Below are positions 1 to 18,605 of a DNA stretch of 25,115 nt, in pieces. The DNA is from Gaiellaceae bacterium (GTDB lineage: Bacteria > Actinomycetota > Thermoleophilia > Gaiellales > Gaiellaceae). The notes under the pieces were generated by a model that ran no database searches, was not told the DNA's origin, and saw only the letters and a list, made by a program, of their open reading frames with translations. The DNA lies in NCBI GenBank assembly GCA_036523555.1, contig DATDDZ010000021.1, forward strand, positions 1 to 25,115, read 5' to 3'. The stretch's first letter is position 1. Every line of letters begins with the position of its first letter. Made by a program: the position numbers and the translations under genes.

Positions 1-648
1 CTGGCCGCTGCCGACCACTCGAAAGGCGATCTCGGGGGCCAGTCGCGCGGCGGCGAGGATGGTCTCGATCCCCTGCAGGGGGATCAACTTGCCGACGAAC
101 AGAGCCGTGAAGGGCTCGGACGGCTCCCACCCGGGACGGAAGAGCCGGTCCTCCGCGCCGACAAAGCACACCTCGACGACTCCGAGTCCGGCGAGGTCGG
201 CCAGGAAACGAGCGTGGGCCTCGGTGTCGGCGACGACGAGATCCGCGGCGCGGAACGCGTGACGGTCGACTGCCTCGAGCGCCCGCGCGGCGAATGAGCC
301 GGGCCGAAAGCGGCGCCGGTCCGAGACGAGCGTGTCGGCGAGCGAGACGAGCGGGTTGAAGACGATCGGCGCGCCGCGCGCCGCGCGCCGGGCGGCGGTC
401 AGGTCGAGGTGCCCCGGGTAGCCGACCACGAGGGCGTCGGCACCCTGGGCGCTCCCGGCGAGGAGCTTCCCCTCGGCGACGACGAGCCTGAGCAGCCGAC
501 CCGGGCCGGCGCTCCACCCCTCACGCAGGTCGTCCCACACGGGGACGTGCTCTTCGACGACGTCGACGCCGGCACGCCGCAGGCACGCGATCACCTGTGC
601 GTTCCGTGGATACGCTCGCTCGTAGGTGCCGAAGTAGCAAACCTTCAC
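1..648 (-). CDS. GT4-family glycosyltransferase, N-terminal part (runs off the left edge)
   Basis: Not in the ORF track because no stop lies in the window. Manual translation from GTG at 648 gives VKVCYFGTYERAYPRNAQVIACLRRAG...VVGYPGHLD...FNPLVSLADTLVSDR...VVADTEAHARF...ALFVGKLIPLQGIETILAAARL...FRVVGSGQ, typical of GT-B/GT4. Confidence 0.82.
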   Translation of the reverse strand, partial: MKVCYFGTYERAYPRNAQVIACLRRAGVDVVEEHVPVWDDLREGWSAGPGRLLRLVVAEGKLLAGSAQGADALVVGYPGHLDLTAARRAARGAPIVFNPLVSLADTLVSDRRRFRPGSFAARALEAVDRHAFRAADLVVADTEAHARFLADLAGLGVVEVCFVGAEDRLFRPGWEPSEPFTALFVGKLIPLQGIETILAAARLAPEIAFRVVGSGQ

Positions 649-686
649 GGCGCGGCGCCCCGGCGCCCGTGGACGTGAGTCACCCT

Positions 687-850
687 AGTGCTCCCGGCCG
701 CAAGTACGCCCAGCCTGGCCGGCTGCAAAGCGTCGCCTCGCGTCGTCCTCGGTCGCGCTCGTACTTGATCCAGTACGAGCGCTCCCTGCGTCCTTGCGAT
801 GCTCGCTTGTTCGCCGGCCAATCAAGACCGTACTTACGGCCGGAAACACT
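687..850. repeat. 164-nt nested foldback (MITE/REP-like) element between GT2 and GT4
   Basis: 22-bp terminal inverted repeat 687-708/829-850 with 3 mismatches, all G-U compatible on the minus strand; inner stem TGGCCGGC 716-723/GCCGGCCA 813-820; perfect 11-bp central hairpin GCGCTCGTACT 755-765/AGTACGAGCGC 772-782. Confidence 0.7.
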
Positions 851-1788
851 TAGGAGAGGACTTCGTCCACGAGCAACTCGGCCCGCTCGCGTTCCCCGGC
901 ACGCTCCTCGTGATGGCTCGTGATCATCTCGCTGATCAATCCGAGCGAGAAGAACTGCAGGCCGATGACGACGAGCAGCACTCCGAGCATGAGCAGGGGC
1001 CGATGCCCGATTGCATGGCCGAGCGCCTTGAGGACGGTCAGGTAGACCAGGATCGCGGATCCGAACAATCCGAGGATCAGCCCGAGCCCGCCGAAGAGAT
1101 GCAGCGGCCGGTGCCGGTACCGCCCGATGAACGAGACGGTCAGCAGGTCGAGAAACCCGCGCAGGTAGCGCTCGATCCCGTACCGCGAGCGGCCGTGCTC
1201 GCGCGACCGGTGATTGACGGGAAGCTCGGCGATCCTGAAGCCGCGGTAGTGCGCGAGCACGGGAATGAAGCGGTGCAGCTCACCGTACAGGCGCAGGCCG
1301 TGCACGACCTCGGCGCGGTACGCCTTCAGGCCGCAGTTCATGTCGTGGAGGCGCACTCCCGAGAAGGCGCCGGTGACGCGGTTGAAGATGCGCGACAGGA
1401 TCCGCCGGGACAACCGGTCGCGTCGATCGGTCTTCCAGCCGGAGACCAGGTCGAACCCCTCGTCGAGCTTCGCCAGGAGGCGTGGGATCTCGGCGGGGTC
1501 GTCCTGGAGGTCGCCGTCGATGGTCACGACTGTCTCGCCCTTCGCCTGGTCGAATCCCGCGACCAGCGCCGCGGCCTTGCCGAAGTTGCGACGGAGCCGG
1601 ACGACGCGGACGTTCTCCTCGGCGCTGTGGAGGCGCGTGAGAGCCGCGAACGTTCCGTCAGTCGATCCGTCGTCGACGAAGATCGCCTCCCATGAGGTGT
1701 GGAGGGGCTCGAGCGCGGAGCGGAGCTCGTCGTAGAGCAGGGCGACGCTTCGCGCCTCGTTGTGAACCGGGACGACGACAGAGATCAC
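850..1788 (-). CDS. GT2 polyprenyl-phosphate glycosyltransferase (ArnC/GtrB/DPM-synthase-like) with C-terminal TM helices
   Basis: SVVVPVHNE, FVDDGSTDGT, LRRNFGK, IDGDLQDDP (DxD), LYGELHRFIP, and two hydrophobic C-terminal segments. Confidence 0.92.
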   Translation of the reverse strand: MISVVVPVHNEARSVALLYDELRSALEPLHTSWEAIFVDDGSTDGTFAALTRLHSAEENVRVVRLRRNFGKAAALVAGFDQAKGETVVTIDGDLQDDPAEIPRLLAKLDEGFDLVSGWKTDRRDRLSRRILSRIFNRVTGAFSGVRLHDMNCGLKAYRAEVVHGLRLYGELHRFIPVLAHYRGFRIAELPVNHRSREHGRSRYGIERYLRGFLDLLTVSFIGRYRHRPLHLFGGLGLILGLFGSAILVYLTVLKALGHAIGHRPLLMLGVLLVVIGLQFFSLGLISEMITSHHEERAGERERAELLVDEVLS

Positions 1789-1812: not shown

Positions 1813-3003
1813 GTGGCGGAGCTGCTCTCTCTCGCGGAGGCACGGGCGGCCGTGCTCGAGCGGGTGGTGCCTCTCCCCGCTGAGCCGGTCGCTCTCGGCG
1901 AGGCCGGTGGACGGGTTCTGGCAGAGGACGCTGTCTCGACTGTCGACCTGCCTCCGTTCCCGAGCTCGGCAATGGACGGGTTTGCCGTGCGCGCGGCGGA
2001 CTCCCCCGGCCGCCTGGTCGTGGTCGGAAGCGTCGCAGCCGGCGCGCCTGCGACCGCCGGTCTGCGAGCAGGAGAGGCGATGGGCATCGCAACGGGCGGG
2101 GCGGTCCCGCCCGGCGCCGACGCCGTCGTCAGGATCGAGGACGTCGTCCTGGAAGGCAACACGGTCGAGATTCCCGGAGTCGGCGAAGGCAAGAGCATCC
2201 GCCCGCGCGGCGGAGACATCCGCGAGGGCGAGGTCGTCGTCGAGAAGGGGACCCGCATGGGAGCGGCCCACGTCGCGGCGCTCGCGGCCGCAGGGGCTGC
2301 GGGAGTCTCGGTCTCGCGACGCCCGCGAGTCGCCGTGCTCGCCACCGGCAGCGAGCTGCGCCCTCCCGGCGAGCTCCTGGGCCCCGGACAGATCTTTGAC
2401 GCGAACGGCGTCCTGCTCGCGACCGCGCTGTCGGCCGCAGGCGCCGAGGTCGAAGTGCTTCCCGCCGTCGAGGACGATCCGGACGCCCACCGGGATGCGC
2501 TGGAACGCGGTCTCGGAGCCGACGTGCTGGTCACGACGGGGGGCGTGTCCGTCGGCCCCCACGACCTCGTGCGCTCGATTCTTCGCTCCCTCGGAGTGGA
2601 GGAGGTGTTCTGGGGTGTCGCGGTCAAGCCCGGCAAGCCGCTGGCCTTCGGCGTGCTGGGCACGACGCTCGTCTTCGGGCTCCCCGGCAACCCCGTGTCG
2701 ACACTCGTCGGCTGCGAGCTCTTCGTTCGCCCGGCGGTCCTGGCTCTGCAGGGTGCGCCGGAGCCCGGCCCGGTCTACCGGGATGCGCGTCTCGCGGCCG
2801 CGGTCAAGCGTAACGCGGGGCGAGACGAGCTCCTGCGCGCGCGGACGCGGTTCACGGACGACGGTGTCGTCGTCGAGCCCGTGACGGGCCAGGAGTCGCA
2901 CATGATCGTCCGGGCGGCAGGCGCCGACGCGCTCGTGCTGTCACCGCGCGGAAACGGTGAGCTTCCCGAGGGATCTCACGTCCGCTACTTCCCGCTCGCC
3001 TGA
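1813..3003 (+). CDS. moeA: Molybdopterin molybdotransferase MoeA
   Basis: PPFPSSAMDGFAV, ATGGAVPPGADAV, GQIFDAN, TGGVSVG, VKPGKP, GLPGNPVS, GQESH motifs. Confidence 0.95.
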   Translation: MAELLSLAEARAAVLERVVPLPAEPVALGEAGGRVLAEDAVSTVDLPPFPSSAMDGFAVRAADSPGRLVVVGSVAAGAPATAGLRAGEAMGIATGGAVPPGADAVVRIEDVVLEGNTVEIPGVGEGKSIRPRGGDIREGEVVVEKGTRMGAAHVAALAAAGAAGVSVSRRPRVAVLATGSELRPPGELLGPGQIFDANGVLLATALSAAGAEVEVLPAVEDDPDAHRDALERGLGADVLVTTGGVSVGPHDLVRSILRSLGVEEVFWGVAVKPGKPLAFGVLGTTLVFGLPGNPVSTLVGCELFVRPAVLALQGAPEPGPVYRDARLAAAVKRNAGRDELLRARTRFTDDGVVVEPVTGQESHMIVRAAGADALVLSPRGNGELPEGSHVRYFPLA

Positions 3004-3713
3004 GCAGAGATCGGTGCGTAGGGCGTGCCGCCGCGCGGCTCGACGCGCACGAGCCTCGCGTACGCGATGTAGCGATGCGTGGCGAAGAACCTCGGGTGGC
3101 ACGCCTGCAGCTCGAGCAGCTCGTGCCGCGGCGACTTCAGGACCGAGAGATCGGTCGCCTTCACGATTCGGTGGCCAGTCACCGAGTAGACGAACGTCGC
3201 GTACGGGACCTGCAGGGTGACGCGATCGCCGGGCCGGAGCGCGTCGATGTGCGAGAAGGGAGCGAGATACGTCGTACGGTGCCCGGCGATGTAGACGAGC
3301 CTGTTCTCGCCGGGCATGTAGGTCCGCTGGTCTCTGCCGGGGCCTTTCGTCAGCGTGTCGTGGTCGGTCCCGTTGACGAAGATCATGTGCAGTCCCATGC
3401 GTGGGATCAGGATGCGGCCGATCGCCTGGCCGGGGCGCGAGCTCGCGCGGTAGCGCTCGGCCGCCCGCGCGACGTTCCTTCGAGTCGCCGCCAGCGAGTC
3501 GCCGGGTGAAAGTGGCGCGAAGGTACTGACGCGCCGGTCGTACTGCGATCTGAGCTCGTGCTGCTTCCACTTCGTGTAGAGGGCGGTGAACGGGTCCTGC
3601 CACCTCCAGACGACGAACGCCCACACGAGAGTCAGCAGACCGGCCGCGATCAGCACCGTGCCTCCGAGCCGGAGCGCTCGCCGCGCGCGTGGGCGTGTCG
3701 CAGCGAGACGCAC
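2985..3713 (-). CDS. Sortase (class E-like)
   Basis: The likely start is GTG 3713, overlapping the upstream TAG (TAGTG), not 4397 as in the ORF track. N-terminal TM (LGGTVLIAAGLLTLVWAFVVW), His in IAGHRTTY, Cys in LELQACHP (Ala in place of the usual Thr of TLxTC), Arg in THRY. Confidence 0.9.
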   Translation of the reverse strand: MRLAATRPRARRALRLGGTVLIAAGLLTLVWAFVVWRWQDPFTALYTKWKQHELRSQYDRRVSTFAPLSPGDSLAATRRNVARAAERYRASSRPGQAIGRILIPRMGLHMIFVNGTDHDTLTKGPGRDQRTYMPGENRLVYIAGHRTTYLAPFSHIDALRPGDRVTLQVPYATFVYSVTGHRIVKATDLSVLKSPRHELLELQACHPRFFATHRYIAYARLVRVEPRGGTPYAPISAQASGK

Positions 3714-5599
3714 TAGCCCTCGAGCGCCTCGAGGTCTCGACCCGCCGACGCTCGCCGCCGGTTTCGAACGGCGAGGAACGTCGTCCGCATGACTCGCCTG
3801 AGCGGGCCGCGCGGCGGCAACTCGGCCGCGTCGGGGTACGGGGCGTAGCGACCGACGGCGAGCGCGGCGAGCTGACCTGCGCCCGCGAGCCAGATGACGA
3901 GAAACGGCATCACTATGAGCGGGACATAGCCGACGGCGCGCAATTCCGCCAGGTACCACGGTGCGTCCCAGCCGAGCCCGAAGCGTCCCGCGAACGAGCC
4001 GATCAGAAGCATCGGCCCTGCGAGCCCGGCGATGAGCACGCCTGCTCGTGCGGCCGGAGAGGCCCTCGCGATCTGCGGTAGCCAGAGCCAGATATGCAGG
4101 CTCGGCAGGACGAAGACGAGGGCGAAGGGGTTCGTCGCGACGAGCAGAAGCGCCAGCACGCCGAGACAGAGCAGGGCAGCCGTGTGGCCGGCGAGAATCT
4201 CTTCGACGGCGACGCCGCGCCGCGGCAGCAGGCGCTCCCGCGTCACGAGCCAGCCGAGTAGAGCGAGGACGATCAGCGCGACGAGCGCCTTCGCGGGAAC
4301 ATGGTGGGCGAGAGTGCTTCGGGGCGAGATCGGGCGAGGCTCGCCCGAGCCCCAGGCCCGGAGGAGGCCGAAGAGCTCGAAGAGCGCGATCACCCACGCC
4401 CAGAACGCGAGGCGGCTTCGGTAGCTGCGAAGCGCGGGGCCCAGCGGGATGCGCCGGCGGCGGCAGCGGGCGAACAGGTCGATCGCCGTTGCCAAAAATG
4501 GCAACAAGCAGGCGATCAGCACGAGCTCGACCGCCCAGCCTCGAATCAGGCGCGAGCCGAGGTAGAGGTAGCTCGACGTGCCTCGCGCGAACTCGAGGCC
4601 GTCGTCGAGCGAGCCCACGATGTCCTGTGCGGTCCTTCCTGCCTCGGCGAGGCGATCGGTGCGCAGGCGCCGGGGAGTATCGAAGAGGGGATTCGGGAGA
4701 TGGTCGCCTGCAGTGGTGAGCGTCACCGCGCCGATGCCGTGCGTCAGGAACGGAGCATGCTCGTAGAAGGAGTAAGGAAAGCCCAGGTCGACGAGCTGCC
4801 GGATCAGTCCCGACCGCGCAGGCCGGACGCCGGTCTGGGCCGCCGCGCGTGCCGCGACCGTCTCGATCAGGGTGGCCGACGGCGTCCGCGGCACGTCGCC
4901 GTTGAACTCGACGCGCAACGGCCCTCCTCCGCCCACTGCGTCGAGGTTGACCACCGCCTCGACGTCGTGGCGCAGGGGCGAGTGGGCCGCGAACCAGGCC
5001 GCGCCCAGCCCGCCGGCCGAACCGCCGTCGGTCGAGAGGAAGAGAATCGTGTGGTTCGGGTGGAGCTGAACTGACGGCACGCCGGGCGGGGCGGCATAGG
5101 CGCGTGCGAGCTGTACCAGCACGGCGGTCCCTGAGGCGTTGTCGTTCGCGCCGGGGCCGCGGCCGTCGTTGTCGCGATGCGCCATGACGACGATCGTCCC
5201 CGGCGAGCGGCCTACCGCCTCGGCGACGAGGTTCTCGAGGCGGACGCGGCCGCGACCGGGGATCTCCGCGCTGAAGCTCTCAGACCTGACCGGGAGGCCG
5301 TAGGGCTCGAGCTGTCCGCGGAACCAGTCGACGGCGGCGGGGGCACGCGCAGACCCGGGCGACCGGTCGGGGATCTCGTTCACGAGATCGGACGCGAGCG
5401 CTTTCGCGGCGCCGCCGTTGAAGGCCGGGATGAAGCTCGATCGCGGCAGGGCCGCCGGGCGCGCGACGCTGAACGCGGCGACGAGCAGCGGCAGTCCGAC
5501 GAGCAGCCAGGTTCCGCGGTAGAGACGGCCGTTGACCGGGCGCTCGAGCGAGCCGGGCCGCGCCCGACGCCGCTTGCTTCGGGGCGGAATGGAGGCCAT
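3713..5599 (-). CDS. Multi-TM M28-fold protein lacking the catalytic EE (GPAA1/Gaa1-like architecture)
   Basis: N-terminal TM, MAHRD, GANDNASG and NLDAVG are present; FLSTDGGSAGGLGA replaces the FxxDGEExGLxGS motif; about 7 hydrophobic C-terminal segments. Confidence 0.85.
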   Translation of the reverse strand: MASIPPRSKRRRARPGSLERPVNGRLYRGTWLLVGLPLLVAAFSVARPAALPRSSFIPAFNGGAAKALASDLVNEIPDRSPGSARAPAAVDWFRGQLEPYGLPVRSESFSAEIPGRGRVRLENLVAEAVGRSPGTIVVMAHRDNDGRGPGANDNASGTAVLVQLARAYAAPPGVPSVQLHPNHTILFLSTDGGSAGGLGAAWFAAHSPLRHDVEAVVNLDAVGGGGPLRVEFNGDVPRTPSATLIETVAARAAAQTGVRPARSGLIRQLVDLGFPYSFYEHAPFLTHGIGAVTLTTAGDHLPNPLFDTPRRLRTDRLAEAGRTAQDIVGSLDDGLEFARGTSSYLYLGSRLIRGWAVELVLIACLLPFLATAIDLFARCRRRRIPLGPALRSYRSRLAFWAWVIALFELFGLLRAWGSGEPRPISPRSTLAHHVPAKALVALIVLALLGWLVTRERLLPRRGVAVEEILAGHTAALLCLGVLALLLVATNPFALVFVLPSLHIWLWLPQIARASPAARAGVLIAGLAGPMLLIGSFAGRFGLGWDAPWYLAELRAVGYVPLIVMPFLVIWLAGAGQLAALAVGRYAPYPDAAELPPRGPLRRVMRTTFLAVRNRRRASAGRDLEALEG

Positions 5600-5613: not shown

Positions 5614-5718
5614 GGTCGCGTACCACCCGGCAACTCAGCGGGCATGTGGGCAAGGCCCGCAGACCCTCCCCGGAGCCGGCGAGCGCCCCAACGGCAGGCA
5701 GCCGACAGCCGAGCCGAC

Positions 5719-6414
5719 ATGTCCGACTCCTCGACCATCCTCCTCGTCGACGACGAGGACTCCGTCCAGAAGCTTCTCGCGTATCCACTCGAACGTGAGG
5801 GCTTCAGGGTGCTGCAGGCTCGCGACGGGCAGGAAGCGCTCGAGCGCTTCGCCTCCGAGAGCGTCGACCTCGTCGTGCTCGACGTCATGCTCCCCAAGCT
5901 CGACGGGCTCGAGGTCTGTAAGCGCCTCCGCGCGGAGAGCCAGGTCCCGATCATCATGCTGACCGCGCGCGACGACGAGCTGGACAAGGTGCTCGGCCTC
6001 GAGCTCGGGGCGGACGACTACATCACGAAGCCGTTCTCGATTCGCGAGTTCCGCAGTCGTGTGCGCGCGCTCCTCCGGCGTGCGGCGGTTCCGCGCCAGG
6101 CGGAGGTCGGCGACGTCATCTCCGCCGGCGGCCTCGAGATCGACCTCGCCCGGCGCGCGGTCGAGGCTCGCGGAGGGCAGGTTCAGCTCACGTACGTCGA
6201 GTTCGAGCTCTTGCGGACGCTGGCCTCACATCCAGGCCGCGTCTACAGCCGGCGGATGCTGCTCGAGGCCCTCTGGGGGAGCGCCGACTACCGGGAGCCG
6301 CGCACGATCGACGTTCACGTTCGCCACCTGCGCGAGAAGCTCGAGGAGGATCCCGCCGAGCCCGAGTACATCCTCACCGTGCGCGGCGTCGGGTACCGCT
6401 TCCGGGACAGGTGA
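5719..6414 (+). CDS. OmpR/PhoB-family response regulator
   Basis: ATG 5719 (MSDSSTILLVDDE), phospho-Asp in VVLDVMLP, YITKPF, and winged-helix RTIDVHVRHLREKLE...TVRGVGY. Confidence 0.95.
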   Translation: MSDSSTILLVDDEDSVQKLLAYPLEREGFRVLQARDGQEALERFASESVDLVVLDVMLPKLDGLEVCKRLRAESQVPIIMLTARDDELDKVLGLELGADDYITKPFSIREFRSRVRALLRRAAVPRQAEVGDVISAGGLEIDLARRAVEARGGQVQLTYVEFELLRTLASHPGRVYSRRMLLEALWGSADYREPRTIDVHVRHLREKLEEDPAEPEYILTVRGVGYRFRDR

Positions 6415-7841
6415 ATCCCCTCCGGAGCGTCGGTGCGCGGCTCGGTCTCGGCCTTGCAGTCGTCGTCGCTTTCGCGCTCCTCCTGGTCGACCTGATCGTC
6501 GTTCCATCCCTCGAGAACAACCTGATCAAGTCGAAGCTCGGACAACTGCGGGAGGAAGTGCCCACCGTTGCGCAGCAGGTCGTGGCGAGCAGCACCTTCA
6601 CCCTCGTCGACACGCTTCAGGCCGCCGCGTCGAGCTCGAATGCCCGGGTGGTCTGGTTCAACGTCCTGACGGCGGCGCCGCTGACCCTCACCGTCTACGC
6701 CGATTCGAACTCCATCTCGACCGCCGACGTGCAGAACGACCGCATCGCCCTCGCCGCGTATCGTGACGGGGCGCCCGCGAGCGGAACCGTCTCCTGGCAC
6801 GGCCAGCGCTACGCGGAGTCGGCGGTCCCTGTCGCGGAAGGCGTGGTTCTCCTTCGAGCATCGCTGCACGATTCGTTGCGCAGCATCGCTCTCGTCCGCC
6901 GGCGCCTCGTGATCGCGGGCCTCATCGCTCTCGCCGCTTCGCTGCTCGTCGGTTACCTCGCGGCAGCATTGTTCGCGCGCCGGATTCGGCGGCTCGAGCG
7001 CGCGGCGGACCGGATCGCCGGCGGCGACTTCGGCGAGCCGGTGACCGATGCCGGGCGGGACGAGCTCGGGGACCTGGCCGCGACGTTCGAGCGGATGCGC
7101 CAACGGCTCGCCCGGCTCGAGCACGCCAGGCGTGAGTTCATCGCGAATGCGTCCCACGAGCTTCGCACGCCGCTGTTTTCGCTCGGCGGCTTCCTCGAGC
7201 TGATGTCCGAGGAGGACCTCGACGCGAACACCCGGATCGAGTTCCTGGCGACGATGCGAGAGCAGATCGAGCGTCTGACGAAGCTCGCCACCGAGTTGCT
7301 CGACCTGTCGAGGCTGGATGCCGGGCGTATGCACGTCGAGCGCGAGCCGGTCGACCTGGTCGAGGTGGCCGAGACCCTCGCCGCGGAGTTCCGCGCGGTC
7401 GCCCGGGCCGGCGAGCATATCCTGGAAGTCGAGGGCTCGGAGACCGCCACGGCCCTGGCGGACGAGGAGAGGGCGCTCCAGATCGGCCGGATCCTCGTGG
7501 AGAACGCTCTCGTGCACACCCCGGCGGGGACTGCCGTTCGCCTCCGCACGGCGCGGCGGGACGACTCCGTCCTGCTGACCGTCGAGGACGAGGGCCCGGG
7601 CATCCCGGTCGAGCAGGCCGAGCAGGTCTTCGACCGGTTCTACCGGGTCGAGGGCTCGGTCGCTTCGGGGAGCGGCCTCGGCCTCGCGATCGCCCGCGAG
7701 CTCGCGGAGCTGATGGGCGGGGCGATCGAGCTCAGTGGGATGCCTGGACGGACGATCTTCGCGCTCGTGCTGCCGGCGGCGGCCGCCGACTTCGCCGTTT
7801 CACGTGAAAACAGGTCGCTGAAAGAGCCGTCGCTACAGTGA
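6411..7841 (+). CDS. HAMP-containing sensor histidine kinase
   Basis: Two TMs, HAMP (RDELGDLAATFERM), H-box SHELRTPL, N-box LVENAL, DEGPGI, FDRFYR, GSGLGLAIA; GTGA overlap with the RR. Confidence 0.95.
   Translation: MNPLRSVGARLGLGLAVVVAFALLLVDLIVVPSLENNLIKSKLGQLREEVPTVAQQVVASSTFTLVDTLQAAASSSNARVVWFNVLTAAPLTLTVYADSNSISTADVQNDRIALAAYRDGAPASGTVSWHGQRYAESAVPVAEGVVLLRASLHDSLRSIALVRRRLVIAGLIALAASLLVGYLAAALFARRIRRLERAADRIAGGDFGEPVTDAGRDELGDLAATFERMRQRLARLEHARREFIANASHELRTPLFSLGGFLELMSEEDLDANTRIEFLATMREQIERLTKLATELLDLSRLDAGRMHVEREPVDLVEVAETLAAEFRAVARAGEHILEVEGSETATALADEERALQIGRILVENALVHTPAGTAVRLRTARRDDSVLLTVEDEGPGIPVEQAEQVFDRFYRVEGSVASGSGLGLAIARELAELMGGAIELSGMPGRTIFALVLPAAAADFAVSRENRSLKEPSLQ
7796..7811. 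promoter_or_regulatory. parS-like palindrome
   Basis: cGTTTCACGTGAAAac matches 13/16 of the parS consensus TGTTTCACGTGAAACA; perfect 12-bp palindromic core TTTCACGTGAAA. Confidence 0.5.
7834..7839 (+). promoter_or_regulatory. -10 hexamer for leaderless htrA
   Basis: TACAGT 7 nt upstream of ATG 7847; the same hexamer precedes ccmA. Confidence 0.45.
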
Positions 7842-7846
7842 CGCCG

Positions 7847-9064
7847 ATGCGAGCCGGGCCCCTCGCCGCCGTGGCGGTTGCAGCCGCCGTCGTCGGCGGA
7901 GGTGCCGCTCTGGGTATCGGCAAGAGTGCGGGTTGGCTCGGCCAGAGGACGAAGACCGTCGTCGTTCAGGCCGGCACCGTCAGGCCCACCGCTCTGCCCG
8001 CTGCCGCAAAGTCGACCGTCGCCCCGCTCGAGGGAAAGGGTTTCGAGCCGAGCCGCATCTTCGCCAGCCGCTCCCCGGGCGTCGTGACGATCTTCGCCTA
8101 TTTCGGCGATCCGGCGTCCGCGAGCACCCAGATCTCACAGGGCTCGGGTTTCGTCATCTCCGGTTCCGGCTACGTGCTGACGAACTCGCACGTGATCACG
8201 AATGCGGGGGAGACGAGAAACGTGCACGCGGCAGCACACCTCTATGTCGAGTTCTCGGACGGCGGCCGGGTCGAGGCGAAGGTGGTTGGCTGGGACCTCT
8301 ACGACGACGTCGGCCTCGTTCGCGTCGATCCAGCAGGCCATGACCTCTTTCCGGTGCCTCTCGGCGAGTCGGCCGGCGTCGTCGTCGGCGAGCCCGTCGC
8401 CGCGATCGGGAGCCCGCTCGGCAACGAGAACTCGCTCGCGGTCGGGGTCGTCTCCGCCGTCCATCGCTCGATCGACGCCTTGACGGTGGCCAGGTACAAG
8501 GTGGTCGACGCGATTCAGACCGATGCGCCGATCACGCACGGCAACTCTGGCGGCCCGCTCTTCGACGCCCACGGTCGCGTGATCGGGATCAACGCGCAGA
8601 TACGGAGCGCGAACGGGACCGGCAACGACAGCGGCATCGCTTTCGCGATTCCGATCGACGCGGCGAAGCGATCGGTCGCGCAGCTGATCGCCAGGGGCAA
8701 GGTGTCGTATGCGTACGTCGGCGTCAGCACCGAGGACATGACGCCGACGCTCGCACGGGCCCTCGGCTCGAAGGTCGAACACGGGGCTCTGATCGTCGCT
8801 GTGAACTCGTCGAGCCCCGCGAGCCGGGCGGGGCTCAGGGCCGGAACGCGCCAGGTCGACGTGCTCGGCATCAACGGCCTGGTCGCAGGTGGGGACGTCG
8901 TCGTCGCAGTCGACGGCCACGCGATTCGGCGTGCGGACGACCTTGTGCGGATCGTCTCGTTCTCCCTTGAGCCGAACGGGGTCACCGTCTTCACGATCGT
9001 CCGGAACGGCCGCCGCCTGAACGTCCCCGTCACGCTCGGCGAGCGAGAGCTGCCGACCGATTAG
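7847..9064 (+). CDS. htrA: HtrA/DegP-like S1C serine protease with PDZ domain
   Basis: N-terminal TM; triad TNSHV, YDDVGL, IQTDAPITHGNSGGP; C-terminal PDZ. Alternative start GTG 7838. Confidence 0.93.
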   Translation: MRAGPLAAVAVAAAVVGGGAALGIGKSAGWLGQRTKTVVVQAGTVRPTALPAAAKSTVAPLEGKGFEPSRIFASRSPGVVTIFAYFGDPASASTQISQGSGFVISGSGYVLTNSHVITNAGETRNVHAAAHLYVEFSDGGRVEAKVVGWDLYDDVGLVRVDPAGHDLFPVPLGESAGVVVGEPVAAIGSPLGNENSLAVGVVSAVHRSIDALTVARYKVVDAIQTDAPITHGNSGGPLFDAHGRVIGINAQIRSANGTGNDSGIAFAIPIDAAKRSVAQLIARGKVSYAYVGVSTEDMTPTLARALGSKVEHGALIVAVNSSSPASRAGLRAGTRQVDVLGINGLVAGGDVVVAVDGHAIRRADDLVRIVSFSLEPNGVTVFTIVRNGRRLNVPVTLGERELPTD

Positions 9065-9618: not shown

Positions 9619-10896
9619 ATGCTTCAACTCGTCAACGCCGGCCACAAGTCACTCGCCGACTACGCCACGATTGCCACGCGAGGGCTGATGGACGAGATCC
9701 GCAGGCTCGCCGAGCCGCTCGCCGGCAAGCGGGTCGCCCACCTTTCAGCCACCGCGTTCGGTGGCGGCGTCGCCGAGATCAACTACACGCTCATCCCGCT
9801 GATGCAGGACGCGGGCCTCGAGGTCGAGTGGCGCATCATCAAGGGCGCCGAGGAGTTCTACGACGTCACGAAGACGATCCACAACGCGTTGCAGGGCAAT
9901 CCGCAGGGCCTCACCGCGGAGCAGCTCGAGATCTTCCGGCGGTACCAGGCGCTGAACGCCGAAGCCTTCGAGGACGACTACGACTTCGTCGTCGTTCACG
10001 ATCCGCAGCCCGTCGGGATGGTCGACTTCTACCCTCGGTCCCGCGCGCACTGGATCTGGCGAGGTCACATCGACTTCTCCACGCCGAATCACGAGGTCTT
10101 CGATGCGCTGCTTCCGTCGATCCGCGGTTACGACGCGGCGATTTTCCACATGCGCGAGTACGTGCCGAGCGCGGATGGGCTGCCTCCGTGTTACATCTGG
10201 CCGCCTGCGATCGACCCCCTCGCGCCGAAGAACATGGCTCTCTCCGGGGAGGACGCCGCCTACATCGTCGACCAGTTCGGCATCGACGTGGAGCGGCCGC
10301 TGCTAACCCAGGTGTCGCGGTTCGACCCGTGGAAGGACCCGCTCGGCGTGATCGACGCGTACCGTCTCGTGAAGGAGCAGTTCCCCGGCATGCAGCTCGC
10401 GCTCGTCGGTTCGATGGCTCACGACGATCCCGAGGGTTGGGACTTCTACAACCAGACCGTCGCGTATGCGGCCGGCGATCCCGACATCTACATCCTCTCG
10501 AACCTGAACAACGTCGGCTCGGTGGAGGTCAATGCCTTCCAGGTCCACTCTGCGGCAGTCCTGCAGAAGTCGATCCGTGAGGGCTTCGGGCTGACCGTGA
10601 CGGAGGCGCTCTGGAAGACCCGCCCGACGGTCGCCGGACGCGTCGGCGGGATCGTTGCGCAGATCCAGGACGGCGAGACCGGGTGGCTCGTCGACTCCGC
10701 GACGGACTGCGCCCGGGCATGCATCGAGATCCTCTCTGACCCGGCAGCCGCGCGACAGCGTGCGCTCAAGGGCAAGGAGTACGTCCGCCGCAACTTCCTG
10801 ACGCCGAGGCTCCTGCGCGACTGGCTTGTGCTCTTCAACCGTCTGCTCGGCAACGAGACGGCAGGCGCGGAGCTGGCGGTCGTCGCGGCCGCCTAG
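9619..10896 (+). CDS. treT: TreT-like trehalose synthase (GT4)
   Basis: GGGVAEI, IHNALQG, VHDPQP, WIWRGHID, QVSRFDPWKDP, QKSIREGFGLTVTEALWK. Confidence 0.8.
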   Translation: MLQLVNAGHKSLADYATIATRGLMDEIRRLAEPLAGKRVAHLSATAFGGGVAEINYTLIPLMQDAGLEVEWRIIKGAEEFYDVTKTIHNALQGNPQGLTAEQLEIFRRYQALNAEAFEDDYDFVVVHDPQPVGMVDFYPRSRAHWIWRGHIDFSTPNHEVFDALLPSIRGYDAAIFHMREYVPSADGLPPCYIWPPAIDPLAPKNMALSGEDAAYIVDQFGIDVERPLLTQVSRFDPWKDPLGVIDAYRLVKEQFPGMQLALVGSMAHDDPEGWDFYNQTVAYAAGDPDIYILSNLNNVGSVEVNAFQVHSAAVLQKSIREGFGLTVTEALWKTRPTVAGRVGGIVAQIQDGETGWLVDSATDCARACIEILSDPAAARQRALKGKEYVRRNFLTPRLLRDWLVLFNRLLGNETAGAELAVVAAA

Positions 10897-10908
10897 GCTG
10901 CGCCGCTC

Positions 10909-12327
10909 GTGCGCCGCAGGCTGATCGTCGTCTCGAACCGCGGCCCGGTCTCGTACGGGCTCGATGCGCAGGGGAACCGCACGGCGAGGCGAGGTGGCGG
11001 CGGTCTCGTGACCGCTCTGCGGAGCCTCGTCGCCTACCACGACGTCACGTGGATCGCGAGCGCGATCACGCCCGAAGATCGCGCGCTCGCGGGCCGTACG
11101 ATCGACGAAACGGCTCGCGACGGCTCCCTCTACCGTCTGCATCTGATCGCCCATGACGAGCAGGCCTACGACTGGTACTACAACGTCGTCGCGAACCCGG
11201 CGCTCTGGTTTCTCCAGCATTCGCTCTGGGCGCTTGCGAACACACCGAGAGTCGATCGCGCCTTTCACGTCGCCTGGGACCAGGGGTACACGGTCGTGAA
11301 CGAGGGATTCGCGGCAGCGGTCCTCGCGGAGCTCGAGCAGGCCCCCGATGCCGCCGTGTTCTTCCACGACTACCAGCTCTACCTGGCCCCGCGCATGGTG
11401 CGCGCGCGGAAGCCCGACGCGAAGTTGATGCATTTCGTGCACATCCCGTGGCCCCAGCCGGACGCGTGGCGGGTACTGCCGAGGCGCATGCGCTCTGCCG
11501 TGCACGACGGCCTGATCGCCAACGACGTCGTCGGCTTCCACACCGAGCGCTGGCGCCGGAACTTCGTCTACTGCGTCCGGGAGATTCTCGGTGAGGACGT
11601 GACCGCGAAGACGGTGACCGCACCGATCTCCGTTGACGCTGCCGAGTTCGAGGAGCTCGCGCAGAGCGACGCCGTGCTCGAGGCCGAGCGCGAGATCGTC
11701 GCCGACCGGCCCGAGAAGCTCGTCGTCCGCGTCGACCGGACCGACCCGTCGAAGAACATCGTGCGCGGTTTCCAGGCGTTCGAGCTCTACCTCGACCGGC
11801 ATCCGGAGATGCACGGACGCGTCACCATGCTCGCGCTGCTCGACCCCTCACGGCAGGACATCGCCGAGTACGCGGAGTATCTCGCGTCGATCGAGCGTGA
11901 GGCGCGCCGCGTCAACGGGCGACTGGCCACGATGGGCTGGACACCGATCGAGCTCGAGATCGAGGACGATTTCCCCAGATCGGTGGCGGCCTTCAAGCAG
12001 TTCGATGTACTGCTCGTCAACGCGATCTTCGACGGGATGAACCTGGTCGCCAAGGAGGCGCCGCTCGTGAACCAGCGCGACGGTGTCGTTGTCCTGTCGG
12101 AAAACGCCGGCGCGCACGCCGAGCTCGGCGAATGGGTGCTTTCCGTGAACCCGTTCGACGTCGAGGCGCAGGCCGACGCGCTCGAGGAGGCCGTGGAGAT
12201 GCCCTTGGGGGAGCGCCGGGCGCGGCTCGACGCGATCCGGTCGCAGGTGCTCGAGCACGATCTGAACGCCTGGATCGCCACGCAGCTCGATGCTCTCGAC
12301 CGGGTGGGCGCTCCGTCGCGCAGCTAG
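10909..12327 (+). CDS. otsA: Trehalose-6-phosphate synthase family (GT20)
   Basis: [69 protein letters not shown]. Confidence 0.85.
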
Positions 12328-12340
12328 GATCGGCAGGCGC

Positions 12341-12787
12341 ATGGGCGAGCTGAGCCACGTCAGCAAGGCGGGCGACGTTCGCATGGTGGACGTCGGCGGA
12401 AAGCCGCTCTCACGGCGCAGGGCTGTCGCGTGCGGGAGCGTTGTCATGGGCTCCGAGACCGCGCGGCGCCTACGAAAGCTCCCGAAGGGCGACGCGCTCG
12501 CAGCGGCCCAGCTCGCCGGCATCATGGCCGCCAAGCGGACGAGCGAGCTGATCCCGCTGTGCCATCCGCTGCCGCTGACTCACGTCGAGGTGTCGCTCGA
12601 GGTCGGCGAGGCGCGCGTCGACATCACCGCCGTCGCGGAGACGACGGCCCAGACGGGCGTCGAGATGGAAGCGCTGACGGCCGTGTCGGTGGCCGCGCTG
12701 ACGGTCTACGACATGACGAAGGCGGTCGATCGGGAGCTCGTCGTCACCGATGTGCGGCTCGTCGAGAAGACGAAGGAGCCGACCTGA
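12341..12787 (+). CDS. moaC: Cyclic pyranopterin monophosphate synthase MoaC
   Basis: LSHV...[46 protein letters not shown]; start at ATG 12341. Confidence 0.95.
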
Positions 12788-13263
12788 GAGCGGCAGTACT
12801 GACCGTCTCCGACGGGGTCGCGGCGGGAGTGCGTGATGATGCGAGCGGGTCACTGCTCGTCGAGCTGCTGGCGGGTGAGGAATACGAGGTCGAGCATCGC
12901 GTCGTGCCGGACGACCGCGCCGGGATCTCGGCGGCGATCCGCGAGCTCTGCGAGCGGGCCGAGCTCGTCCTGACGACCGGGGGAACCGGCGTTGCCCCAC
13001 GAGACAACACTCCCGAAGCAACCGAGGAGGTGCTCGACCGGCACGTGCCAGGGATCGCGGAAGCACTGCGCGCCGACGCGCTCGCGAAGACGCCGCACGG
13101 ACTGCTCGGCCGCGGGGTCGCCGGCATTCGAGGGAGAACGCTCATCGTCAACCTTCCGGGGTCGACCGGCGGTTGCCGCGACGGCTTCCGTCTCCTGCGG
13201 CCGGCACTCGGGCACGCGCTCGAGCTGATCGCCGGCGAGACGTCCGAGCACCGGGCGACGTGA
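12784..13263 (+). CDS. mog: MogA/MoaB-family molybdopterin adenylyltransferase (probable CTG start)
   Basis: (L)RAAVLTVSD...[47 protein letters not shown] 12784 lies 5 nt after AAGGAG and overlaps the moaC TGA. Confidence 0.88.
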
Positions 13264-14120
13264 GCTCGGCGCTCGTCCTCCCCGGCCGGTTCGCGTCGCT
13301 CGTCAAGATCGAGCACACGGTCTTCGCTCTTCCGTTCGCGTACATCGGAGCGCTCCTCTCCGTCCACGACGTCCCGTCCGCGCACGACCTCCTCTGGATC
13401 ACGGTGGCTATGGTGGGCGCGCGGTCGCTCGCGATGGGGCTCAACCGGGTCATCGATGCGGAGATCGACGCGCGCAACCCGCGGACGGCCGGGCGCGAGC
13501 TTCCGTCCGGCCTGTTGACGCGCGCTCAGGTGGCCGCTTTTTGCGCGCTCGCGCTCGCCGTCTACCTGCTCGCCTGCTTCCAGCTCGACCCGCTCGTGCG
13601 GTGGCTCTGGCCCATCCCGCTCGCCGGTTTCGTCGTCTACCCGTATCTCAAGCGCTTCACGTGGCTCAGCCATCTGTGGCTCGGTGCTGTCGACGGCCTC
13701 GCGCCCGTGGGCGCGTGGGTCGCGATCACCGGCCGGCTTCCATGGGAGGCCTGGGCGCTGGGCGGCGCTGTCGCGCTGTGGATCGCAGGCTTCGACTTCT
13801 TCTACGCGCTCTTCGACCGCGACGTCGACGTCGCGCAGGGGCTGCATTCGGTGGCTGTCCGGTTCGGCGTCGCCGGCGCTTTCTGGTGGGCGCGGGCGCT
13901 CCACGTCGCGACCGTGGCGCTGCTCGCCGCAGCCGGCATCGGGTTGCGGCTCGGGTGGCCCTACTGGCTCGGAGTCGGCATCGTCGCGGCTCTCCTCGGA
14001 TACGAGCACTCACTGGTGCGGCCCGGTGATCTCCGGCGTCTGGACGCCGCGTTCTTCACGGTCAACGGCGCGATCAGCATCGCGCTCTTCCTGTTCGTGC
14101 TCGTCGAAGTCCTGGTCTAG
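13260..14120 (+). CDS. mqnP: UbiA-like prenyltransferase, MqnP type (futalosine menaquinone pathway)
   Basis: LVKIEHTVFALPFAY, GARSLAMGLNRVIDAEIDARNPRT, RELPSG, YPYLKRFT, AGFDFFYALFDRDVD; GTGA overlap with mog. Confidence 0.85.
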   Translation: MSSALVLPGRFASLVKIEHTVFALPFAYIGALLSVHDVPSAHDLLWITVAMVGARSLAMGLNRVIDAEIDARNPRTAGRELPSGLLTRAQVAAFCALALAVYLLACFQLDPLVRWLWPIPLAGFVVYPYLKRFTWLSHLWLGAVDGLAPVGAWVAITGRLPWEAWALGGAVALWIAGFDFFYALFDRDVDVAQGLHSVAVRFGVAGAFWWARALHVATVALLAAAGIGLRLGWPYWLGVGIVAALLGYEHSLVRPGDLRRLDAAFFTVNGAISIALFLFVLVEVLV

Positions 14121-14148
14121 GGCCGAGGCCGCCCGCGGCGCCCGCGAC

Positions 14149-14154
14149 TACAGT
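14149..14154 (+). promoter_or_regulatory. -10 hexamer for leaderless ccmA operon transcript
   Basis: TACAGT 6 nt before GTG 14161. Confidence 0.5.
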
Positions 14155-14160
14155 GGCGCT

Positions 14161-14745
14161 GTGATCCGGGCCCGCCGACTGGAGAAGCGCTACGGCGCCA
14201 AGCGGGTCCTGCGCGGAGTCGGCTTCGAGCTCACCAGCCCGGGCTTCCTGCTCGTGACCGGCCCCAACGGCTCCGGGAAGACGACCCTCCTCCGCCTCTG
14301 CGCCGGCCTGGCCGCACCGACGGCCGGGGAGCTCGACGTCGCGGTGACGCGCGGACGGATCGGCTTTCTCGGACACGAGCCGCTGGTGTACCGGGAGCTC
14401 ACCGCCCTCGAGAACCTCGAGCTCTACGGGCGCCTCTACCGCGTGCGCGAGCGCCGGGAGCGGATCGGGATGCTGCTCGAGCGCTTCGAGCTCTGGGACG
14501 CCCGGCACGAGCGCGCCGGTTCCTACTCCCGCGGCATGATGCAGCGCCTCGCGCTCTGCCGGACGCTCCTGCACGATCCCGACCTGCTCGTCCTCGACGA
14601 GCCTTACAGCGGCCTCGACGACGACGGCGCAGCGCTGCTCGACCGTGAGCTCGCCGAGCGGCGCGAGAGGGCGGCGTTCGTCGTGGCGACGCACGATCCC
14701 GAGCGAGTCGAGCCGCTCGCCTCGCTTCGACTGGCGCTGGGATGA
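14161..14745 (+). CDS. ccmA: Heme exporter ABC ATPase CcmA
   Basis: Walker A GPNGSGKT, YSRGM signature, Walker B LLVLDEP, VATHD; adjacent to ccmB and ccmC. Confidence 0.88.
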   Translation: MIRARRLEKRYGAKRVLRGVGFELTSPGFLLVTGPNGSGKTTLLRLCAGLAAPTAGELDVAVTRGRIGFLGHEPLVYRELTALENLELYGRLYRVRERRERIGMLLERFELWDARHERAGSYSRGMMQRLALCRTLLHDPDLLVLDEPYSGLDDDGAALLDRELAERRERAAFVVATHDPERVEPLASLRLALG

Positions 14746-15380
14746 CGTACCTCGCGGACGTCGGCACGCTTGCTCGCAAGGATCTTCTGCTCGAGCTGCG
14801 CGCGCGCGACACGCTGCCGGCAATGCTCCTGTTCGTCTTCTCCACCCTGGTCGTCTTCCACTTCGTGCTGCCCGGCGACTCGTCGGAGCTCGCGGCCACC
14901 GGGCTCCTCTGGGTCGCTCTCGTCTTCACGGCGCTCCTCGGCCTCTCGCGGTCGTTCGCCGCCGAGCGGGACCAGGGCGTGATCGACGGGCTCATCCTCG
15001 CCCCGAGTGACCGCAGCGCGATCTGGCTCTGGAAGGCTCTCTCGATCCTCGTCTTCCTCGGCCTCGCGGAGGTGGTGGCGCTGCCGGCCTTCGCCCTCTT
15101 CTTCGGGGACGTGGACGGGTCGCTCGTCGCCGGGGTCGCCCTCGCGGATCTCGGGATCGCGGCCGTCGGGACGCTGCTCGCGGCCGTCGCGGCGGCCAGT
15201 CGGGCACGCGAGCTGCTGCTGCCGCTCCTCTTCCTCCCTCTGGCGATCCCGATCGTGATCGGCGGCGTCGGCGCGAGTGTGGCCGACCACTCCCCGCGTT
15301 ACCTCGGCTTCCTGGCGGTCTACGACACGATCTTCGCGCTCGTCTGCTGGGCATCGTTCGAGTACGTCGTCACCGAGTAG
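14742..15380 (+). CDS. ccmB: Heme exporter permease CcmB
   Basis: KDLLLELRARD, LLWVALVF, FAAERDQG...L, ELLLPLLFLPLAIPIVI; about 6 TMs. Confidence 0.92.
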   Translation: MTYLADVGTLARKDLLLELRARDTLPAMLLFVFSTLVVFHFVLPGDSSELAATGLLWVALVFTALLGLSRSFAAERDQGVIDGLILAPSDRSAIWLWKALSILVFLGLAEVVALPAFALFFGDVDGSLVAGVALADLGIAAVGTLLAAVAAASRARELLLPLLFLPLAIPIVIGGVGASVADHSPRYLGFLAVYDTIFALVCWASFEYVVTE

Positions 15381-15403
15381 CGGCCCGGTCCGAGGGGTCT
15401 CAG

Positions 15404-16117
15404 GTGGGAGTTCTGCGAGAATTGCTTCGCAGTCCCGTGTGGATCCGTCTCCCCCTTCCAGGCCTCGCCGCCGTCGCCCTCGTCCTCGTCGCGACGGCGA
15501 TCGCGCTGATCGCGTACGTCGCTCCCGAGGACGTCGACCAGGGTCTCTCGCAGAAGATCTTCTACTTCCACGTGCCCATCGCCCTGACCGCGTACGCGAT
15601 GTTCGGCTGGGGTGCGTGGAAGGCACTGCTCCACCTGTGGCGCCGGGATCCAGACGCCGATCTCGAGAGTTACGTCGCGATCCACCAGGGCGTGATCTTC
15701 GGCGCGCTCACGCTCGTGACCGGATCGATCTGGGCCAAGATCTCTTGGGGCGTCTGGTGGGCGTGGAGCTCGAACCAGCTCGTCCTCTTCCTGGTCCTCT
15801 TCCTCTTCTACGCCGCCTACTTCATGCTGCGCTTCTCGATCGAGCCGGGGCCGCGACGGGCGAACAGCAATGCCGTCTACGCGATCTTCGGCGTCGCCCT
15901 GATCCCGGTCAGCTTTCTCGCGATTCGACTTGCGAACGACTTCATCCACCCGACCGTGTTCACCTCGCACGGGCCGCAGATGTCGGGCCTGATGTTCTTC
16001 ACGTTCTGCATCTCGTGGGCGTCCTTGCTTGCGCTGGCCGCATGTCTGTATCGAGTCGAGCTGGCGGGAAAGAGAATCGATCTGCGCCTGCGCGAGCTGA
16101 GGGAGCTGCTGACGTGA
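15404..16117 (+). CDS. ccmC: Heme exporter / heme-delivery protein CcmC (variant W-rich motif)
   Basis: KIFYFHVP (His), LVTGSIWAKISWGVWWAW, FIHP (His). Start uncertain (15404 or GTG 15437). Confidence 0.88.
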   Translation: MGVLRELLRSPVWIRLPLPGLAAVALVLVATAIALIAYVAPEDVDQGLSQKIFYFHVPIALTAYAMFGWGAWKALLHLWRRDPDADLESYVAIHQGVIFGALTLVTGSIWAKISWGVWWAWSSNQLVLFLVLFLFYAAYFMLRFSIEPGPRRANSNAVYAIFGVALIPVSFLAIRLANDFIHPTVFTSHGPQMSGLMFFTFCISWASLLALAACLYRVELAGKRIDLRLRELRELLT

Positions 16118-16296
16118 CCAGCGCGGAGAAGTACGTCGCGGCCGCGTATCTCGTTGTCTTCGTCGTCGTCCTCGCTTACGTCCTGATCATCGCCGCGAAG
16201 CTCGACCGGCTCGAGCGCGAGGTCGCCGAGCTCAGTGAGCTCGCACACGCACGCAGGGAGGACGAACCGGAGCGAGAGGCGGTCGCGGTTGGCTGA
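16114..16296 (+). CDS. ccmD: CcmD-like small membrane protein (60 aa)
   Basis: GTG 16114 overlaps the ccmC stop; KYVAAAYLVVFVVVLAYV single TM followed by a charged tail; position directly after ccmC. Confidence 0.75.
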   Translation: MTSAEKYVAAAYLVVFVVVLAYVLIIAAKLDRLEREVAELSELAHARREDEPEREAVAVG

Positions 16297-17080
16297 GCTC
16301 TTGTTCTGGCCGGCTTTGATCGCCTACGGCGAGGCGGCGGTCGCCTATCTCGGCGATGCGCGCCGTCCCGGGCTGGCAGGGCGGCTCGCGATCTGGGGCG
16401 TCCGCGTCGGCTGGCTCGTCCAGACCGCGCTGCTCGCGGTTCAGGCCGCCCGCTCGGACGGGTTTCCGTGGTCGACGTGGGCAACGTCGCTCAACCTCTT
16501 CGTCTGGCTCGTGGTCGCGGCCTATCTGATCTGGGGCTGCCGGCCCCGGTATCGGTTGCTCGGGCTGGCGGTCCTCCCTCCTGCGGTGATCCTGTTCGCC
16601 CTGGCCCGCGCGGGCGGCGGGACCGGCGTGGGTGCGCACAGCCGGTACTCGAATCTCTTCCTCGTGCTGCACGTCGGGCTCGTCCTGACCGCGTTCGCCG
16701 GTTTCATGCTCGCCGCGTCGCTGTCGGCCCTGTATCTCTGGCAGGAGCAGCGGCTGAAGCGCCACGAGGCATCGATCCTCCGCGTGCGCGCGCCGGCGCT
16801 CAGCCGCCTAGACGAGCTGACGGGCAGGACGATCGCGGTCGCGGTGCCGGCTCTGACTCTGGGGATCGCCGTCGGGATCGTGCGCCTGCGTAGCGACGGT
16901 GGGGGGTTCGACGCGCTGATGGCGGTGACGGTGCTCACGTGGGCCGTGTATGGGACCTACCTCGGGCTGCGCTATCTCGCGGGCTGGCGCGGCCGGCGTG
17001 GCGCCTATCTCGTCCTCGCAGGCTTCGCGCTCGTCGTCGTGGCCAGGCTCGCCCTCCCCATCACCCACTTCACCTCATGA
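16289..17080 (+). CDS. HemX/YpjD-like membrane protein of the CcsA (cytochrome c assembly) superfamily
   Basis: TTG start with GAGAGG upstream; LVLHVG, LYLWQEQRLK, PALSRLD, GWRGRRGAYL, C-terminal HF; no WGxxWxWD motif; directly precedes hemA. Confidence 0.8.
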   Translation: MAELLFWPALIAYGEAAVAYLGDARRPGLAGRLAIWGVRVGWLVQTALLAVQAARSDGFPWSTWATSLNLFVWLVVAAYLIWGCRPRYRLLGLAVLPPAVILFALARAGGGTGVGAHSRYSNLFLVLHVGLVLTAFAGFMLAASLSALYLWQEQRLKRHEASILRVRAPALSRLDELTGRTIAVAVPALTLGIAVGIVRLRSDGGGFDALMAVTVLTWAVYGTYLGLRYLAGWRGRRGAYLVLAGFALVVVARLALPITHFTS

Positions 17081-18491: not shown

Positions 18492-18605
18492 AGTCGGCGA
18501 GCCTGATCGGGCGACCGCTTCCCGTGCAAGCTCCGACGGCGTTCGTTCGCATCCGCCGTCGCAAGGGCTGCGGCGCCCATGCGAGAGCGAGACGAAGCTG
18601 GTGCC

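Follow-up and report, generated by a model that had tools for sequence, protein, structure and literature searches.

The 25-kb contig DATDDZ010000021.1 of a soil bacterium of the Gaiellaceae (Actinomycetota; class Thermoleophilia), analysed here as a whole and called the window, encodes a 628-residue membrane protein, P0001, whose modelled structure aligns in full length with GPAA1 of the glycosylphosphatidylinositol (GPI) transamidase and whose gene overlaps that of a sortase, P0003, directly downstream. The source genome is a 2.3-Mb metagenome-assembled genome, 74% complete, with a G+C content of about 70%. The reading that we prefer, and to which we give about an even chance, is that P0001 is a non-proteolytic envelope protein of GPAA1 fold that is co-expressed here with the housekeeping sortase as its probable accessory. 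An earlier note on this DNA, made from the sequence alone, had proposed that the two proteins form a GPI-transamidase-like anchoring system. The GPAA1-like structure, membrane domain included, and the coupling to a sortase held up, whereas the anchoring system was not supported.

Fold and active site of P0001

P0001 matched Peptidase_M28 of Pfam (PF04389) over residues 123-294 with an E-value of 1.2e-20 (74.5 bits; cut-off 21.3). The AlphaFold2 (AF2) model, for which the input alignment comprised 46 bacterial sequences, reached a predicted local distance difference test score (pLDDT) of 90.1 and a predicted template modelling score (pTM) of 0.86. It comprises an N-terminal transmembrane helix, an extracytoplasmic M28-fold domain, and a polytopic C-terminal domain with helices at residues 354-381, 387-412, 436-457, 465-489, 491-504, 515-539, 543-556, and 563-582, from which about 7-8 C-terminal membrane helices are predicted. 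Open reading frame (ORF), Pfam match, and model together bear out the 628 aa, N-terminal transmembrane helix, M28 fold, and about seven C-terminal transmembrane helices first read from the sequence. A charged helix at the C-terminus (residues 599-627), probably cytosolic, lies outside the part aligned with GPAA1, which stops at about residue 584. The residues conserved throughout the family sit outside the metal site: the RLYR motif before the first transmembrane helix (R25 and R28 at least 90% conserved), F60 right after that helix, the RxPGS and GxxG motifs, D374/R381 (DxxARxRR) past the first C-terminal helix, and the invariant P491 (NPF) within the membrane domain.

A Foldseek search of the PDB placed GPAA1 chains of human GPI transamidase at ranks 1-4 (8imy_G, 7wld_G, 8imx_G, and 7w72_A), with E-values of about 1e-15 and template modelling scores of 0.58-0.65 over about 640 columns. 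The alignment was full length, pairing residues 9-584 of the P0001 model with residues 8-621 of the GPAA1 chain at a structure-based identity of 16-18%, and Swiss-Prot models of GPAA1/Gaa1 from human, mouse, fission yeast, and budding yeast scored 0.56-0.65. ERMP1 and Pff1 had E-values similar to those of GPAA1 (1e-15 to 1e-11); because their global template modelling scores were low (0.35-0.40/0.24-0.31) and the root-mean-square deviation (rmsd) was 12-21 Å, only their M28 domain can be said to superpose on P0001. When ranked by language-model features, ERMP1-type proteins stood slightly above Gaa1. The membrane domain alone found no significant Foldseek match in the PDB, and in an unfiltered VIA-align scan its only PDB match was GPAA1, the PDB being without ERMP1/PFF1 membrane domains. 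The resemblance to GPI-transamidase structures anticipated in the earlier note was therefore recovered, with full-length GPAA1 as the top match and the membrane domain included by way of the VIA-align scan. The Gaa1 features tested and found in P0001 were the order of N-terminal transmembrane helix, M28-like domain, and polytopic C-terminal domain, the membrane-domain fold, and the lack of a functional di-zinc site. The paper on the human GPI transamidase described the membrane domain of GPAA1 as being without a recognisable structural homologue, and GPAA1 as being without a zinc site (PMC9098846). Shape searches of the ESM Atlas returned solely P0001's own family and generic M28 clusters. The best Foldseek match of the full model was the AFDB cluster A0A7C6ZCG0, a 963-aa bacterial 'M28 family peptidase'.

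Judged from the model, P0001 is GPAA1-like by structure but not by sequence. It had no match to Pfam Gaa1 (PF04114) at E <= 10, and this profile was weakly matched by two of 46 relatives, the better one scoring 17.4 bits (cut-off 28.6). The single match whose position was determined fell in the shared M28 motif region. Searches of PDB sequences with phmmer and with the family profile matched ordinary M28 peptidases, glutaminyl cyclases, the transferrin receptor, and Nicalin; GPAA1 was absent from the matches listed for both. Nicalin was the best match of P0001 alone (1e-5), and with the family profile Nicalin and nicastrin ranked below ordinary M28 peptidases. A sequence profile of the membrane domain only gave no match, and Pfam ERMP1-TM and PFF1_TM (PF22249 and PF22251) matched none of 46 family members. 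On sequence profiles, then, the kinship with Gaa1 proposed earlier was not recovered, Gaa1 being placed behind ordinary M28 peptidases, glutaminyl cyclases, the transferrin receptor, and Nicalin.

The metal site was located by alignment to the Streptomyces griseus aminopeptidase (1cp7_A). H141 (AHRD), D153 (GANDNASG), and D220 (NLD) align with H85, D97, and D160 of that enzyme and are all kept, and G193/S194 occupy the positions of E131/E132, which we take to be the general base and a ligand, so that both Glu residues are gone. The position of the YHT motif, assigned by motif, reads LFDTP (F306) and has no His. Of the five metal ligands (H, D, E, D, H) and the general-base Glu, P0001 keeps only H141, D153, and D220, in agreement with the first reading of the sequence (HxD and the two Asp kept, EE replaced by GS, no clear YHT His). 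Across 78 Gaiellaceae species, with identities as low as 51%, H141, D143, and D220 never vary, and 74 of the species have D153; the EE pair, whose retention in close homologues the earlier note had named as a sign against itself, occurs in none. A tie between retention of the H/D/D half-site and sortase adjacency was considered and rejected, the half-site being kept in these species with or without a sortase downstream.

Every examined member of the class lacks the EE pair and the YHT His, and in the other families of the class the remaining ligands are mostly lost too (APRD, AARD; Asp of the DN motif gone), with protein and synteny kept. Because of these two patterns, we regard P0001 as a pseudo-enzyme: on the residues present, the family as a whole is a pseudo-peptidase with a residual half-site conserved in Gaiellaceae, and P0001 itself is most likely not a peptidase. 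The conservation of H/D/D in Gaiellaceae points to a metal or ligand site under selection. Given this conservation, and given that the ectodomain superposes on active aminopeptidases with an rmsd of about 2 Å, P0001 might instead be a working membrane-tethered mono-metal aminopeptidase or processing enzyme, for example one that trims surface proteins or clears cleaved sorting-signal peptides. We consider this quite unlikely, in view of the general base and second-site ligands missing throughout the class and the loss of the other ligands in most families that keep the protein; to our knowledge, no M28 enzyme works with an H/D/D half-site alone. A distant out-group member of this protein family, from another family of the phylum (L062:5911-7680, genome G003), has EE (DGEEWGMLGA) and YH (YHLPEDT) and is without the first His; by its motifs it may represent an intermediate state of active-site decay.

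The sortase and its linkage to the P0001 family

P0003 matched Pfam Sortase (PF04203) at 9e-25. Its best NCBIfam model was class E (NF033747), at 118.8 bits under the 160-bit cut-off of that model, and generic sortase models were passed; we therefore call it class E-like. The His of GHR, Cys of QACHP, and Arg of THR align with GHR, TCTP, and THR of the class C sortase 8t28_A, so that the catalytic His, Cys, and Arg motifs are present. P0003 is the only sortase detected in the source genome (a single PF04203 match at 74% completeness). The reverse strand at the junction reads GGC TAG TGC, the TAG of P0001 lying at 3715-3713 and the GTG of the sortase at 3713-3711, with one base shared; direct reading of the sequence confirmed the overlap (TAGTG) reported before. 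A search of the genome for a shared C-terminal sorting motif, suggested in the earlier note, succeeded: in at least two canonical candidate substrates, LPFTG comes with a hydrophobic helix and a tail of basic residues (RR/K). The contig end truncates one of them, a stalk protein rich in Thr; the other is a secreted protein of about 90 aa, rich in Gly, Ala, and Asn, with a signal peptide.

The family was surveyed in a sample of 121 Thermoleophilia genomes (families coded f1-f8, f79, and f80) and in a Gaiellaceae set of 80 species-level loci from a single-protein scan, 77 of which were informative for adjacency. Members of the P0001 family were present in 110 of the 121 class genomes and a sortase in 103. 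The sortase lies immediately downstream of the P0001 gene in 48 of the 77 Gaiellaceae loci, and directly downstream on the same strand in 7/19 genomes of f1, 1/1 of f79, 1/1 of f80, and 8/11 of f4; this adjacency was seen in no checked genome of f2, f3, f6, f7, or f8. Most measured Gaiellaceae junctions (39 of 47) fall within -4 to +4 nt, with TAGTG and TAGATG occurring 16 times each, and dozens of species from four families retain the overlap of stop and start codons with the sortase gene. In the 29 Gaiellaceae loci without an adjacent sortase, moeA is directly next. Conservation of the gene pair, on which the earlier proposal leaned, is therefore partial: it stands in Gaiellaceae, f4, f79, and f80 and fails in the five families just listed and in at least 16 near-complete genomes without a sortase. 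The pairing of P0001 and sortase is facultative. Genomes of f8 (for example, at G426:C4:903450-904913 and G404:C44:38836-40491) also carry a second, longer paralogue with M28 and membrane domains, of about 775-835 aa and covering positions ~20-555 of the family profile.

In a tree of sortase domains, the relocated sortases of five Gaiellaceae genomes (G223, G249, G403, G427, and G474) fell within the clade of adjacent ones, supported at 100/99, indicating that it is the same housekeeping gene that moved; the sortases of f1, f4, f6, and f7 formed one clade (95/96). Overall, this is consistent with an old linkage that was disrupted more than once.

On our preferred reading, P0001 would take part in envelope assembly by scaffolding or as a receptor, which is also what the M28-like ectodomains do in the complexes of GPAA1, nicalin, and nicastrin. 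In this genome and in many other Gaiellaceae, it would be made together with a housekeeping class E-like sortase from one translationally coupled message. As a sortase accessory, it could hold on to the sorting signal embedded in the membrane, or bring a lipid-linked nucleophile into position, during the cleavage of LPFTG proteins by the sortase; by default, lipid II would be the acceptor. Physical contact between the two proteins, the acceptor, and the accessory role are what we infer here. Human GPAA1 binds the ethanolamine phosphates of GPI through the juxtamembrane residues S51, N53, H354, and Q355, which places the glycolipid nucleophile beside the Cys transamidase PIGK (PMC10491789). By analogy, a GPAA1-like role of P0001 in holding a sorting signal or a lipid-linked acceptor is plausible.

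Several observations weigh against this reading. Sixteen genomes that are 94-99% complete (12 of f2 and 4 of f1) carry the P0001 family and no detectable sortase, and genomes of f5 have sortases, with the full-length membrane family not detected there. The linkage is dispensable, because an orthologous sortase lies elsewhere in the genome of several Gaiellaceae. The adjacency could also simply reflect a conserved gene order, GT4-GT2-MoeA-[Srt]-M28TM-RR-HK-HtrA-TreT-OtsA (Srt, sortase; M28TM, P0001; GT, glycosyltransferase; RR, response regulator; HK, histidine kinase). As regards the fold, neither the membrane-domain profile nor Pfam Gaa1 gave a sequence-level tie between Gaa1 and the membrane domain of P0001, and the membrane domains of ERMP1/PFF1 have no PDB entry, so that the specificity for GPAA1 is one among PDB folds.

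The prokaryotic analogue of GPI transamidase that the earlier note had in mind, in which the sortase forms a thioacyl intermediate and the amine of a lipid or glycolipid is offered by its GPAA1-like partner, so that proteins end up lipid-anchored instead of wall-anchored, draws on the same fold and membrane domain, on the coupling to a Cys transpeptidase whose mechanism parallels that of PIGK (PMC9098846), and on glycolipid-type glycosyltransferase genes (GT2, GT4, and GT87) close by. The candidate substrates, however, carry ordinary LPFTG wall-sorting signals, orthologous sortases stand unlinked elsewhere, and the protein also exists without a sortase. Peptidase_C13 (PIGK-like) was not found in five genomes, and no genuine PIG-U was found, its sole signal being a sub-threshold cross-match of a GT87 protein; PIGT and PIGS were not searched for. 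No candidate amine-bearing lipid was identified, and nothing pointed to a lipid or glycolipid acceptor. GPI-like lipid anchoring thus received no direct support, and we hold it to be highly unlikely. The bolder form of the idea, that P0001 and the sortase make up a two-subunit transamidase, the counterpart of the GPAA1-PIGK core, in which P0001 would grip the helix of the sorting signal and offer a lipid-linked amine (lipid II or a GT2/GT4/GT87 glycolipid), and that eukaryotic GPAA1 descended from such a bacterial M28 protein, we regard as unlikely.

Genomic neighbourhood and features of the window

The P0001-sortase pair converges on moeA and diverges from a block that codes for a response regulator, a histidine kinase, and an HtrA-like protease and beyond which lie treT and otsA (Table 1). 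The ORFs of the block overlap one another, and this divergent arrangement (with or without HtrA) is conserved in f1, f4, f6, and f7. Conservation is widest for the divergent two-component system with HtrA and for treT/otsA, which stay beside the locus in most of the class; in f1 and f2, the GT2-GT4 pair ranks with them. In f2, this pair lies directly downstream of the P0001-family gene on the same strand. In a genome of the same genus (G417; L065:9186-16706), the block goes on with DUF2079, a GT87 GT-C glycosyltransferase, and a class A penicillin-binding protein. The locus is a cell-envelope neighbourhood. Farther along the window, the stretch of cytochrome c maturation and hem genes looks like ordinary housekeeping content, and the ORF at 12744-14009 is probably a high-G+C shadow frame.

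Table 1. Features of the window and candidate sortase substrates elsewhere in the source genome (G000)
Feature	Position	Strand	Basis or remark
GPAA1-fold membrane M28 pseudo-peptidase (P0001)	3713..5599	-	628 aa; ORF and translation, Pfam, AF2, structure match
N-terminal transmembrane helix, residues 24-43	5471..5530	-	DSSP on AF2 model; preceded by conserved cytosolic RLYR motif (R25, R28)
Extracytoplasmic M28-fold domain, residues ~55-335	4595..5437	-	Half-degenerate metal site
C-terminal polytopic membrane domain, residues 353-583	3851..4543	-	Fold of GPAA1 transmembrane domain; invariant P491 (NPF), D374/R381 (DxxARxRR)
Charged C-terminal helix, residues 599-627	3719..3805	-	DSSP, lower pLDDT
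TAGTG stop/start overlap joining P0001 and P0003	3711..3715	-	Sequence
Membrane-anchored sortase (P0003), class E-like	2985..3713	-	242 aa; Pfam Sortase, NCBIfam, catalytic motifs
ArnC/PgfS-like polyprenyl-phosphate GT2 and GT4	1-1788	-	Beyond moeA; GT4 cut by contig end
OmpR-type response regulator	5644-6414	+	
HAMP histidine kinase	6411-7841	+	
HtrA/PDZ protease	7838-9064	+	
ORF, 194 aa	9061-9645	-	No Pfam match
treT (trehalose synthase), otsA (GT20), and moaC in a row	9619-12787	+	
ORF, 421 aa	12744-14009	-	No Pfam match; overlaps + strand ABC ATPase ORF 13684-14745
ABC ATPase (13684-14745), CcmB, Cytochrom_C_asm, then hemA, hemC, hemD, SAM hydroxide adenosyltransferase	13684-20871	+	
Candidate LPFTG substrate, Thr-rich stalk protein	G000:C201:4522-4986	-	First of the two as listed
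Candidate LPFTG substrate, small (~90 aa) Gly/Ala/Asn-rich secreted protein with signal peptide	G000:C211:2561-2845	-	Second of the two as listed

This neighbourhood bears most directly on the possibility that P0001 has an envelope function independent of the sortase, either in handling lipid-linked glycans or glycolipids or in working with the envelope-stress two-component system and HtrA, the sortase merely sharing its promoter in some lineages. On either reading, because the family persists in genomes without a detectable sortase (at least 16 of the 110 that carry it), its core role cannot depend on that enzyme and is broader. The divergent two-component system, the position directly upstream of the ArnC/PgfS-like GT2 and GT4 in f2, the block in G417, and the contact of GPAA1 itself with a glycolipid (PMC10491789) are all in keeping with such a function. 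On the other hand, an overlap with the sortase in dozens of species and four families is more than would be expected of a passenger gene, and the sortase is the only neighbour translationally coupled to the P0001 gene in the window. We therefore consider a sortase-independent function a possible but less probable explanation than that of a GPAA1-fold protein serving the sortase as an accessory.

Significance and comparison with known systems

Searches of an open-access paper library turned up no account of a GPAA1-like protein in prokaryotes. A bacterial family with the whole architecture of GPAA1 is a concrete candidate for the origin of the GPAA1 subunit, and its frequent coupling to a Cys transpeptidase with the ping-pong chemistry of PIGK offers a simple two-gene system for asking what a GPAA1-type scaffold contributes to transpeptidation. 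P0001 is also a candidate accessory factor to be added to the sortase biology of Actinobacteria. Should the pairing be only synteny, the result would still define a large family of envelope pseudo-peptidases, so far without annotation, in Actinomycetota that abound in soil.

Compared with M28 enzymes such as the Streptomyces griseus and Aeromonas aminopeptidases and BSAP/YwaD, P0001 has neither of the two Glu residues (general base and ligand) nor the C-terminal His ligand, its M28 domain is fused to an eight-helix membrane domain, and most of its relatives in the class have no ligand at all. ERMP1/FXNA and yeast Pff1, proteins of the endoplasmic reticulum and the vacuole, likewise have an M28 domain followed by many transmembrane helices; however, they are 820-1000 aa in length with extra domains, and the superposition is confined to the M28 domain. 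Nicalin of the BOS complex and nicastrin of gamma-secretase resemble P0001 in having a non-catalytic M28-like ectodomain, with which they cap a membrane complex. Both lack a polytopic domain and have just one transmembrane helix at the C-terminus.

A precedent for sortase accessory factors is SafA, whose gene is linked to those of housekeeping sortases in Actinobacteria and which acts in the membrane, although it is a small transmembrane protein with an FPW motif that shields the sortase from signal peptidase, and its size, fold, and gene order are unrelated to those of P0001 (PMC9282373). GPAA1/Gaa1 (PDB 7W72, 7WLD, and 8IMX/8IMY) differs from P0001 in several respects. The neighbour of P0001 is a sortase (C60), whereas the partner of GPAA1 is the C13 legumain-like PIGK; the ectodomain of P0001 is nearer to active aminopeptidases than that of GPAA1, with the H/D/D half-site kept in Gaiellaceae; some genomes have the P0001 family with no transpeptidase partner detected; and P0001 lies outside Pfam Gaa1, with the low structural identity given above. 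Nevertheless, the parts come in the same order in both, from an N-terminal transmembrane helix through an extracytoplasmic M28-like domain that has no functional di-zinc site to a C-terminal membrane domain of several helices, and each stands beside a Cys transpeptidase that forms a thioacyl intermediate, GPAA1 in a complex and P0001 in an operon.

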